Shown: piece after piece, positions 1,901 to 27,072 of the stretch
Position numbering within the stretch: position 1 is the stretch's first letter
How the letters are laid out: each line of letters begins with the position of its first letter
DNA from: an uncultured Saprospiraceae bacterium
GTDB taxonomy: Bacteria > Bacteroidota > Bacteroidia > Chitinophagales > Saprospiraceae
Length of the DNA stretch: 64,000 nucleotides
Direction: 5' to 3'
Assembly: GCA_937923345.1 (NCBI GenBank)
Contig: CAKZVJ010000164.1
Location: 4,052 to 68,051, forward strand
Program-made: the position numbers and the translations under genes
The notes under the pieces: model-generated
What the model was told of the DNA's origin: nothing
The model's database searches: none
What the model saw: only the letters and a program-made list of their open reading frames with translations

Positions 1901-2048
1901 GCGATCCTGCTTTTTGCAGGGAGCCTAGATTGGATGAGGGGTGGTAGCGGCATCCGTATGATATACAGACGCATTGATATGTGTCTATATCATACGGATA
2001 CAGCGGACGACCCGACCCTGAGCGAAGCGAATGGGTCAGCCCCACACC
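1901..2048 (+). repeat. GC-rich multi-hairpin interspersed element, type A, copy E1
   Basis: ATGAGGGGT box (1934-1942). GGTGGTAGCGGCA (1940-1952) and TACAGCGGACGAC (1999-2011) bracket an imperfect 17-19 bp hairpin. GACCC/GGGTC stem (2014-2018 / 2033-2037) encloses GCGAAGC. Ends in GCCCC. Confidence 0.8.
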
Positions 2049-2060
2049 AGTCTTAGGAAT

Positions 2061-2774
2061 TTATTTCAAACGCATCTCTGCTTTAATAATATTTTCGTTG
2101 GGTTTGTCGAAGTCAATTTTACCATCTACTAATCGGACGATACGATGTGCATGTTCGGCAATGTCGGGCTCGTGAGTCACGATGATTATAGTGTTTCCTT
2201 CGTTGTGTAATTGCTCCATAATCCCCATGATCTCGACGGAAGTTTTGGTATCCAGATTACCGGTGGGTTCATCGGCCAAGATAATAGAAGGCCTGTTGAC
2301 CAAAGCGCGAGCAATGGCTACACGCTGTCTTTGACCACCTGAAAGTTCATTAGGTTTGTGGTGAATACGGTCCCCTAAGCCAACGGATGTTAGCGCTTCT
2401 TCTGCTCGGTCAAGTCGCTCTGATTTGCTGTAACCAGCATAGATCAACGGCAAGGCCACATTGTCTAAAGAAGTGGACCTCGGTAGTAGGTTGAATGTCT
2501 GAAAAATGAAGCCGATTTCCTTATTTCGAATCTCCGCTAGTTCATTATCATCCAAGGTAGCCACGTTGTTTTCATTCAAAATGTAGTCACCGGAGGTAGG
2601 TGTATCGAGGCAGCCCAATAGGTTCATCAGTGTTGATTTGCCGGAGCCAGATGGGCCCATCAAGGCAACATATTCGTTCTTATGAATATTCAAATCTATA
2701 CCTTGTAACGCGTGAACTTTCTCGCTGCCCATGGTATATGTCTTTCGCAAATTTTCTACTTGTATGAGTGCCAT
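2061..2774 (-). CDS. ABC transporter ATP-binding protein (MacB/LolD/FtsE-type, stand-alone ATPase)
   Basis: Walker [10 protein letters not shown], signature LSGGQRQR, Walker [10 protein letters not shown]-loop VTHE. Lies 3 nt downstream of gatC. No permease gene is adjacent. Confidence 0.95.
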
Positions 2775-2777
2775 AGA

Positions 2778-3068
2778 TTACAGATCGATTACTTTTGGTA
2801 TGGTGATAAAATCATCATTGTGGTTTGGTGCATTAGACAAGGCATCTTTCTTTTTAAGCTGGCCGTCTATAAGATCTGGACGGGTCGAGTGGACTGGCTC
2901 ATTGATATAGACTAAAGGGGCTACACCTTCTGTGTCTACGCTTTCTAGCTGCTTGACCATATTTAACATGTTTTCCAAATCCTGCTTGAGTTTTTCTCTT
3001 TCTTGTGGTTGAAAATCTAGTTTTGCTAAATTTTCTAATTTCGAAAATAGAGAATCATTGATCTGCAT
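2778..3068 (-). CDS. gatC: Asp-tRNA(Asn)/Glu-tRNA(Gln) amidotransferase subunit C
   Basis: 96 aa. LAKLDF...E..KL..DL..ML..V..L..VDT.GV.P pattern typical of GatC. Confidence 0.85.
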   Translation of the reverse strand: MQINDSLFSKLENLAKLDFQPQEREKLKQDLENMLNMVKQLESVDTEGVAPLVYINEPVHSTRPDLIDGQLKKKDALSNAPNHNDDFITIPKVIDL

Positions 3069-19993: not shown

Positions 19994-20187
19994 ATCGCGA
20001 CTCGCCGAAGGCGTCCAAGCTCGACAAAGCTTGTCCCGACTGGAGTGTAACGGAATGTCGGGGCGAAGTGCGTAAGGGGCAAACGGTGGAAGCGGCACCC
20101 AGAATATACGCATGGCAATGCGTATATTCTGGGTACAGCGGACGACGTGGTTCCGTCCTGATTTTTCATCAGGATCGGGATGACCCC
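19994..20187 (+). repeat. GC-rich multi-hairpin interspersed element, type A, copy E2
   Basis: GGTGGAAGCGGCA (20085-20097) and TACAGCGGACGAC (20134-20146) bracket a perfect 16-bp hairpin (20098-20133). At least four further hairpins. Ends in GATGACCCC. Confidence 0.8.
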
Positions 20188-26807: not shown

Positions 26808-26940
26808 GGGCATGACCCAGATACTGCGCAGAAAAAGCGCCGCATCTGGGTCGGGCCATCCATGACTCCGTATTCACTTCGGACCATCCCTTGAGGGTCT
26901 GGTCTGCTCCTTACCGTCGCATCATTTCTACCCCTCATGC
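26808..26940 (-). repeat. GC-rich multi-hairpin element, diverged type A, inverted copy E3
   Basis: The reverse complement carries ATGAGGGGT (26930-26938 on the plus strand) and CCCGACCCAG...CTGGGTCATGCCC, which matches the E1 3' module CCCGACCCTG...GGGTCAGCCCC. Confidence 0.6.
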
Positions 26941-27072
26941 AGTTGGATAATTATCACGATGAAATAATTAGTAATTCACCTTGACCAATACACTTAAACA
27001 ATCATTTTCTCTCTTATTATTCGCAATTGAAAGTAATAATTGCTAGTTTTAGTCATACTAAATTCAAACACT

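Follow-up and report, generated by a model that had tools for sequence, protein, structure and literature searches.

A diverged Flavo-1-type element as a modular, high-copy intergenic repeat in a Saprospiraceae genome

The Flavo-1 RNA motif was catalogued by Weinberg et al. (2010, Genome Biol 11:R31; PMC2864571) and is, according to one review, among the most abundant entries of the small-RNA class of Rfam (PMC9029176). It occurs in Bacteroidota hosts in many intergenic copies per genome, and its function is unknown; in Flavobacterium psychrophilum there are 128 copies, which lie sense or antisense to transcripts, many of them outside transcribed regions (PMC9723704, which is the only transcriptome study that has looked at Flavo-1). 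Here we analyze a stretch of 64,000 nucleotides (hereafter, the window) from the metagenome-assembled genome (4.47 Mb, 39% GC) of an uncultured Saprospiraceae bacterium (GenBank assembly GCA_937923345.1, contig CAKZVJ010000164.1, positions 4,052 to 68,051 of the forward strand), and in particular a GC-rich island of 145 bases at about 1899–2043 on its plus strand. The island represents a complete copy of an intergenic repeat that is non-coding, modular and high in copy number, and its core (1938–2013) is a diverged Flavo-1 hairpin; the host is likewise a member of the Bacteroidota, with many intergenic copies in its genome. The identity of the element as a diverged Flavo-1-type repeat is secure, whereas its mechanism is not.

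Other repeat systems resemble the element in part. The REP, BIME and REPIN sequences associated with RAYT in enterobacteria and pseudomonads are also short and GC-rich, form hairpins and occur in intergenic DNA in hundreds of copies; they too lie near the 3′ ends of genes, are lineage-specific, mosaic and long-persisting, and often have neighbors in inverted orientation. Miniature inverted-repeat transposable elements (MITEs) and the palindrome-associated elements of the IS200/IS605 type are non-coding, non-autonomous, high-copy and structured, their presence differs between relatives, and the IS200/IS605 transposase reads the fold of one DNA strand. In the attC sites of integrons, conserved boxes surround a center that is variable in sequence and length but still paired, and the site is read as a folded single strand. 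We read the lifestyle of the present element as probably similar to that of REP/BIME or MITE elements. However, its unit is a three-hairpin element of ~145–200 nt, in which the boxes are direct repeats on two arms rather than inverted copies of one REP, and, unlike attC sites, its copies are dispersed singly without cassette arrays and its boxes do not resemble attC core sites.

At the gathering thresholds of Rfam there is no match in the window. A permissive Rfam scan of the spacer gave a single meaningful match, to Flavo-1 (RF01705), over the full model length with 31.7 bits (E = 4e-5); a match to GA-cis (21.4 bits, E = 0.024) was set aside as weak. The gathering cut-off of Flavo-1, 42 bits, is reached neither by the window copy (31.7 bits) nor by the best copy in the genome (38.9 bits), whereas copies of the same family in same-genus genomes exceed it (61, 46 and 44 bits); therefore the family is continuous with Flavo-1, and the window copy belongs to it as a diverged member below the reach of the curated model. 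A covariance model built from 47 cores of the same genome (R1) scores the window copy at 69.1 bits. The alignment to the Rfam model and the covariation among the 47 copies reveal the architecture that defines Flavo-1, namely two symmetric internal loops, AGCGG on both strands and paired GC steps, and the order of parts is also that of Flavo-1: an outer stem, a 1 × 1 mismatch, 2 bp, a 3 × 3 loop, a G-C/C-G step, a second 3 × 3 loop and a variable stem. The window copy differs from Flavo-1 in being GC-rich, in its central hairpin of 48 nt and in conserved modules lying outside the 76-nt Rfam model (a covarying 5′ hairpin, a linker of 19 nt, a 3′ hairpin and a CCCC tail), and in this genome the same scaffold closes at least two further interior classes (~50–65 and ~105 nt).

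The initial annotation, made from the sequence alone, had noticed two boxes, GGTGGTAGCGGCA at 1940–1952 and TACAGCGGACGAC at 1999–2011, and had matched them to those of another copy. They do recur together, only at 20085–20146, where 20085–20097 and 20134–20146 are the sole other true box copies in the window; box-like words match 4 and 3 times in the window against 0.43 and 0.34 expected, far more than by chance. The boxes are the two strands of one irregular, pseudo-symmetric helix (5′-GUAGCGG and 5′-CAGCGGA), the 5′ strand of which spans 1938–1952 and the 3′ strand, including the 3′ side of P1, 1999–2013. In this scaffold G1938–G1940 pair with C2011–C2013, T1942 with G2009, G1943 with C2008, G1947 with C2004 and C1948 with G2003, with purine-rich 3 × 3 oppositions between them; the center of the helix is a G-C/C-G step having purine–purine (A·G) oppositions on each side, and the helix closes a replaceable hairpin. 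In a covariation test on the 47 copies, 11 of 13 pairs change on both sides, which none of 500 shuffles matched. Scaffold helices 1 and 2 are paired in 100% and 98.9% and covary at six of their seven pairs, and the C-G pair of the central step is replaced by U-A in a compensatory manner in 17 of the 47 copies. Two short-core copies in a relative have both boxes around a core of only 11 nt, without the long hairpin. The boxes had been proposed as possible target-site duplications, an idea that has to be abandoned: they are a structural scaffold, being constant throughout the copies and paired to each other, with compensatory changes.

The limits of the element were set by the alignment of 12 to 13 subfamily copies from this genome and three same-genus genomes. 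Similarity across 12 of these copies (four genomes) begins at 1899–1905, which reads TTGCGAT here and TCGCGAT in most copies. It is followed by a 5′ hairpin that had escaped the earlier description, H1 (1906–1920), predicted to pair 1906–1910 with 1916–1920 around a TTTTT loop; 98.8% of the cells of its stem are paired and four of its five pairs change on both sides, a level reached by none of 500 shuffles. H1 is extended outward by the invariant pairs G1901–C1924 and C1902–G1923, with G1903·A1922 and A1904·G1921 as possible tandem G·A pairs. A linker, GAGCCTAGATTGGATGA (1921–1937; family consensus GAGCCTAGAATGGATGAGG), is near-invariant in 12 copies and single-stranded in the predicted fold. 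Between the two strands of the scaffold lies the variable central hairpin (1952–1999), in the predicted fold of which 1952–1964 pair with 1987–1999 (13 bp) and 1967–1974 with 1979–1986 (8 bp including one G·U), with an AC bulge at 1965–1966 and a TGAT loop; it is self-complementary as first noted, but over a greater length than the 17 bp or so given at that time. Its arms co-vary copy by copy, and the alignment of genomic copies bears out the view of an interspersed family with conserved boxes. The tip of the hairpin (1967–1986), AGACGCAT-TGAT-ATGTGTCT, is a module that recurs in the family. The statement that this copy and the second one share only an ATATAC core in their stems was mistaken, in that both also carry the apical module ACGCAT-NNNN-ATG(C/T)GT.

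The 3′ hairpin H3 (2014–2037) consists of GACCC (2014–2018), a 14-nt loop, TGAGCGAAGCGAAT (2019–2032), and GGGTC (2033–2037), and its loop contains the word GCGAAGC, in the form GC-GAA-GC, at 2022–2028, exactly where it had been placed; the loop follows the pattern T-R-AGCG-N-AGCG-M-A-N in the subfamily. Because neither the H3 stem nor GC-GNA-GC varies among 13 subfamily copies, the subfamily offers no covariation here, and this invariance speaks neither for nor against pairing. The equivalent hairpin has different sequences in other subfamilies, and one paralogue extends GCGAAGC to GTGC-GAA-GCAC, which is compatible with a mini-hairpin register. GCGNAGC by itself shows no enrichment in the window (9 occurrences versus 12.9 expected); what makes it significant is solely that it stands at a fixed position in the 3′ loop of all 13 aligned subfamily copies. 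The element ends with the tail AGCCCC (2038–2043), conserved in the 13 aligned copies and followed by an A-rich flank in most of about 100 listed copies. The loops of the family are commonly C(GNA)G triloops or T-rich, with GNRA and UNCG tetraloops essentially absent.

In this genome the interior enclosed by the closing scaffold, which itself shows the same covariation, is of several kinds: short hairpins with a T-loop, long hairpins with AGAC(G/A)C..G(C/T)GTCT at their tip, interiors of ~50–65 nt, and interiors of ~105 nt, in which several helices are separated by UGAA/UGAG-type purine oppositions. Neither of the last two classes has a meaningful Rfam match at E ≤ 0.1. The tip module, AGAC(G/A)C(A)(A/T)-NNNN-(A/T)(T)G(C/T)GTCT, is 20 nt long and near-palindromic (for example, 1967–1986 in the window and C173:4154–4233); the genome has about 50 clean copies of it, 46 of which lie within 200 nt of family boxes. 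Like a movable sub-module, it occupies the tip of either the central or the 3′ hairpin, or nested branches.

Copy numbers given here are lower bounds, those with R1 being counts among the candidates scored. R1 detects at least 91 copies in this genome and 67–95 in five same-genus genomes but 0–1 in two others of the genus; among the 31 genomes searched, one other genus of the family has 9 copies and the remainder 0–1; 22 of 23 other genomes of the same order have 0–1. Simple box patterns find the same closing motif at more than 100 places in this genome, and a pattern-based count gives 158–183 per genome, some false positives included. Canonical Flavo-1 is equally patchy: of 151 Bacteroidota genomes sampled, 13 contain it, a single genus being saturated, and a genome from the same order carries at least 105 copies. 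Within the window, the core of a second full copy lies at 20075–20156 (+) and scores 71.7 bits with R1, and a third core at 26845–26942 (−), weak and diverged (19.8 bits, E = 0.002), is probably a decayed or divergent copy in a gene-poor region (26.8–28.4 kb). In viral contigs, searched with the box sequences of this lineage, a loose box pattern gave chance matches only, 0 of 80 being confirmed by R1, and a strict pattern gave 5 chance matches without hairpins; BLAST searches of plasmids and phages gave no match.

Orientation to genes is random. In tandem spacers 33 copies are sense and 40 antisense, convergent spacers hold 27 and divergent ones 25, and the spacer types are occupied in proportions like those of the genome as a whole (57/17/26%). 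Cores are nearer to the stop-codon side in 45 of 76 tandem spacers. Where neighboring copies are within 6 kb of each other, 11 of 13 pairs have opposite orientations. Eight of the 13 close pairs are arranged head-to-head with their 5′ ends towards the enclosed genes (p = 0.006 against 25%), for example at C34:8705–10805, C56:45400–47810 and C291:7681–7976; the genes between head-to-head copies include no nuclease or transposase and look like those of lipoproteins, transporters and so on, as judged from their sequences without a Pfam scan. With local GC skew as the reference, the bias in replication strand is weak (47 versus 70, p = 0.04) and gene strand is a confounder, and a complete Flavobacterium-like genome with 27 copies has no clean strand switch. 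Elements are enriched only ~2-fold near contig ends, which are dominated by another repeat: 30 of 670 contig ends carry a different repeat with AAAATCATGACAAATTGA and TTTGGCGTGATTTTCTTTTAAA, probably an insertion sequence that breaks the assembly.

The fold belongs to one strand. With RNA parameters the 148-nt stretch containing the element folds with −62.8 kcal/mol (z = −5.1 against shuffles) and with DNA parameters with −31.6 kcal/mol (z = −4.6); the complementary strand gives −58.6 kcal/mol (z ~ −5). In the 68 simple central hairpins there are 86 G·U pairs and only 5 A·C single mismatches, and the fold of the element strand is better than that of its complement in 58 of 73 copies (p = 1e-9). 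This preference holds for the 40 copies that are, like the window copy, antisense to co-directional genes (−0.39 versus −0.34 kcal/mol/nt) as much as for the 33 sense copies. Since antisense copies fold as well as sense ones, the fold is not kept by read-through from neighboring genes; it is selected on one strand, regardless of the direction of neighboring transcription. The initial annotation had argued against a strand-specific cis-regulatory RNA of the neighboring genes, and the random orientation genome-wide, together with the equal folding of antisense copies, upholds that argument.

Gain and loss were followed at 20 element loci of two relatives by mapping their flanks onto this genome, five loci being informative. 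At two of the five the element is present in the relative and the spacer is plain and AT-rich in this genome. At the other three it is present in both genomes in the same orientation, the scaffold being kept with compensatory changes in P1 and the central step while the hairpins and side modules are entirely different. The window spacer itself holds, in four same-genus genomes, a member of the family that has the same orientation but a different class of interior, and in two further assemblies of the same species it is 100% identical to the window throughout. Presence/absence differences between relatives had been anticipated, and they exist at the two loci mentioned above but not at the window spacer, where no empty site is seen.

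We therefore favor, with a probability of roughly one half, a non-autonomous, recombining intergenic repeat of which one strand has to fold, single-stranded DNA being a likelier form than a dedicated RNA. The notion of a recombining repeat is based on high copy number, patchiness within the genus, random orientation, avoidance of the promoter side, gain and loss, module swapping, the lack of a consistent promoter and of a terminator, and the silence of sense strands in the relative studied; the tilt towards single-stranded DNA comes from long near-perfect stems and from C(GNA)G and T-run loops in place of GNRA/UNCG tetraloops. According to this proposal the repeat would spread and persist because one particular strand must fold when single-stranded, and the folded form would be single-stranded DNA arising in replication, repair or transposition. 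The AGCG/G·A-rich scaffold would probably be recognized by a putative protein, and copies may exchange hairpin modules via recombination across the conserved boxes. That the folded form is DNA, that it has a partner protein and how it spreads are inferences, whereas the family membership, the covarying and strand-specific fold, the copy number, the patchiness, the random orientation, the gain and loss and the swapping of modules are shown by the data.

Several observations weigh against this proposal. No candidate for a mobilizing enzyme was found in searches for Y1 and TnpB: genomes with 77 and 95 copies have no Y1 match, so that Y1 transposases do not track the element as they would in an IS200/IS605-like system, and TnpB (PF07282) is absent from all carrier genomes of the genus. 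Unlike MITEs, the element has neither terminal inverted repeats nor target duplications in the flanks of 12 well-delimited copies. No long autonomous version and no box pair enclosing an open reading frame was found, a looser pattern being too noisy. No exact empty site is alignable among the relatives, because they are ~25% diverged in coding DNA and the same-species assemblies are identical. Copies persist with intact folds at the same spacers in species that are ~25% diverged, which is as easily explained by a host-level function or an RNA as by repeated homing or gene conversion, and their unpaired linkers are strongly conserved in sequence. The helices are rich in G·U (7% of pairs), and the ~105-nt class is a multi-helix domain with conserved unpaired purines, both being more RNA-like than DNA-like. 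Finally, several copies in F. psychrophilum give a condition-dependent sense-strand signal, and one stands at the start of an independent transcript, Rfp7 (PMC9723704).

A link with RAYT or other Y1 enzymes was considered and rejected, as none of the eight Y1_Tnp matches in this genome is flanked by the element family. A gene for a 170-aa Y1 (RAYT-like) protein at C192:3780–4640 is flanked in inverted orientation by a different repeat, GTAG-CCCTGGAAGGG-CGAC; this lone case is a classic REP/RAYT arrangement, the repeat of which has only 5–9 copies in the genome, and is unrelated to the Flavo-1-type family, for which no such association was found. The only multi-copy proteins in the assembly are a few ordinary insertion-sequence genes. 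In the flanks of the copies the only preference is for a 5′ T and an A-rich 3′ side. AT-rich runs like AATTATRAAT occur 3′ of some copies (20 of 178 downstream versus 13 upstream, with ~6% expected; for example, C50:8720–8830, C16:12810–12860 and C257:3870–3920), an excess of ~2-fold on the 3′ side, and there is none at the window copy.

The rival that survives best, a serious one although less probable, is a structured non-coding RNA family, in which the plus strand of each copy would be transcribed, perhaps only in particular conditions, one RNA-binding protein would use the AGCG/G·A scaffold as its handle, and peripheral parts or cargo would be formed by the variable hairpin or larger interiors. 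It is still well in play because of the G·U-rich helices, the ~105-nt class, the conserved unpaired linkers, the persistence in shared spacers and the lack of a candidate enzyme. An RNA family would account for a strand-specific, G·U-rich fold, for a scaffold that combines covariation with many conserved non-Watson–Crick positions, for a multi-helix interior mounted on that same scaffold, for compensatory changes at loci where the element persists, and for scaffold and linker sequences more conserved between species than coding DNA. However, transcription signals do not point in this direction: in the upstream sequences of the listed copies no constant spacing of the Bacteroidota −7 box (TAnnTTTG) is visible, and no terminator-like site (GC-rich hairpin with T-run) exists on either strand of 1700–2200. 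Orientation to genes is random, 40 copies being antisense within co-directional gene pairs; presence is patchy even within one genus; and a bacterial functional RNA would not usually have near-perfect stems of at least 20 bp or be devoid of GNRA/UNCG loops.

The expression data from F. psychrophilum bear on both sides of this question. Many copies there are outside transcribed regions, or their own strand is silent: among seven Flavo-1 copies that we sampled from the array table, the sense-strand signal is near background in four under standard conditions, and two of these four, copies 0001 and 0006, lie in the well-expressed spacer of an operon on the opposite strand, which is the arrangement of the window copy (PMC9723704). 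The sense signal of several copies rises together, as expected of an RNA family, and the start of Rfp7 at one copy is in line with it. In the supplementary table several Flavo-1 features share a fine expression cluster and rise together from ~5–7 to 10–12 log2 units in a few conditions (PMC9723704); this co-rising array signal, on which the paper itself does not comment, could be real co-regulation or cross-hybridization between repeat copies.

An improbable explanation is that the hairpins act in cis in transcripts, in either orientation, as a processing barrier, a stabilizer of mRNA 3′ ends or an intercistronic insulator, as proposed for enterobacterial REP. The element lies in a spacer of 274 nt between two minus-strand genes according to crude open reading frame calls, an ABC transporter ATPase gene (PF00005; 2061–2774, −) and a gene for a membrane glycosyltransferase of the PMT_2 family (194–1786, −), both of which are outside the element and merely its context. 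The gatC gene is directly upstream of the ATPase gene, and the genes at 2061–3068 (−) and 194–1786 (−) are arranged head to tail; the element is inside this probable gatC–ABC–PMT_2 operon. The last conserved base (2043) is 17 nt from the stop codon of the ATPase gene on the opposite strand; the element does follow this stop codon in plus orientation, as had been reported, although the distance given then was 13 nt. One same-genus genome has an additional gene of 365 aa between the ATPase and PMT_2 genes. Strong folding on both strands (−62.8 and −58.6 kcal/mol, z ~ −5), the closeness of cores to stop codons, the location within a probable operon without a terminator and the occupation of the same spacer in five genomes of the genus would all suit a cis-acting element. 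But a simple hairpin barrier leaves unexplained the conserved non-canonical scaffold, the 86:5 asymmetry of G·U to A·C and the superior folding of the element strand where a copy is antisense to its operon, and at two of the five informative loci one genome has no element without any other obvious change in the compared region. In the reading favored above, the element does not regulate the flanking ABC-ATPase and PMT_2 genes.

Least probable is a double-stranded DNA site for a nucleoid or topology protein (cf. BIMEs for gyrase and IHF) or for a dimeric regulator reading the tip AGACGCAT..ATGCGTCT, since, for all the near-perfect palindromic tip module with its ~50 occurrences, the palindromic sequence of about one-fifth of the 4-nt loops (hand count) and the dispersal of elements in intergenic DNA in either orientation, recognition of a duplex cannot yield the strong strand asymmetry of mismatches, and cannot explain compensatory changes in arms 60 nt apart, and in many copies short T-loop hairpins take the place of the tip module.

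A wider and rather unlikely idea, which starts from the interchangeable interiors, is that Flavo-1 may be the smallest member of a large superfamily in which one AGCG/G·A-rich handle helix, a putative protein site, closes a simple hairpin, a ~60-nt or a ~105-nt interior; it would then be either a new mobile element that travels as a folded single-stranded nucleic acid and uses none of the transposase families known so far, or a ribonucleoprotein family, likewise new, whose RNA domains plug in.

For the window itself the practical consequence is small: the island ought to be annotated as a repeat rather than as a leader, terminator or gene. The Flavo-1-type element is a real but recurrent puzzle, and any explanation of Flavo-1 now has to accommodate a fold of one strand, boxes that form a paired scaffold, several unrelated interiors, swapping of modules, gain and loss between species, and the failure of all the obvious transposases to track the element. 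Should a partner protein or a single-stranded DNA intermediate come to light, this would explain ~1% of the DNA of many Bacteroidota genomes (a rough estimate from copy number times element length), and hundreds of thousands of small-RNA annotations would need to be reclassified.

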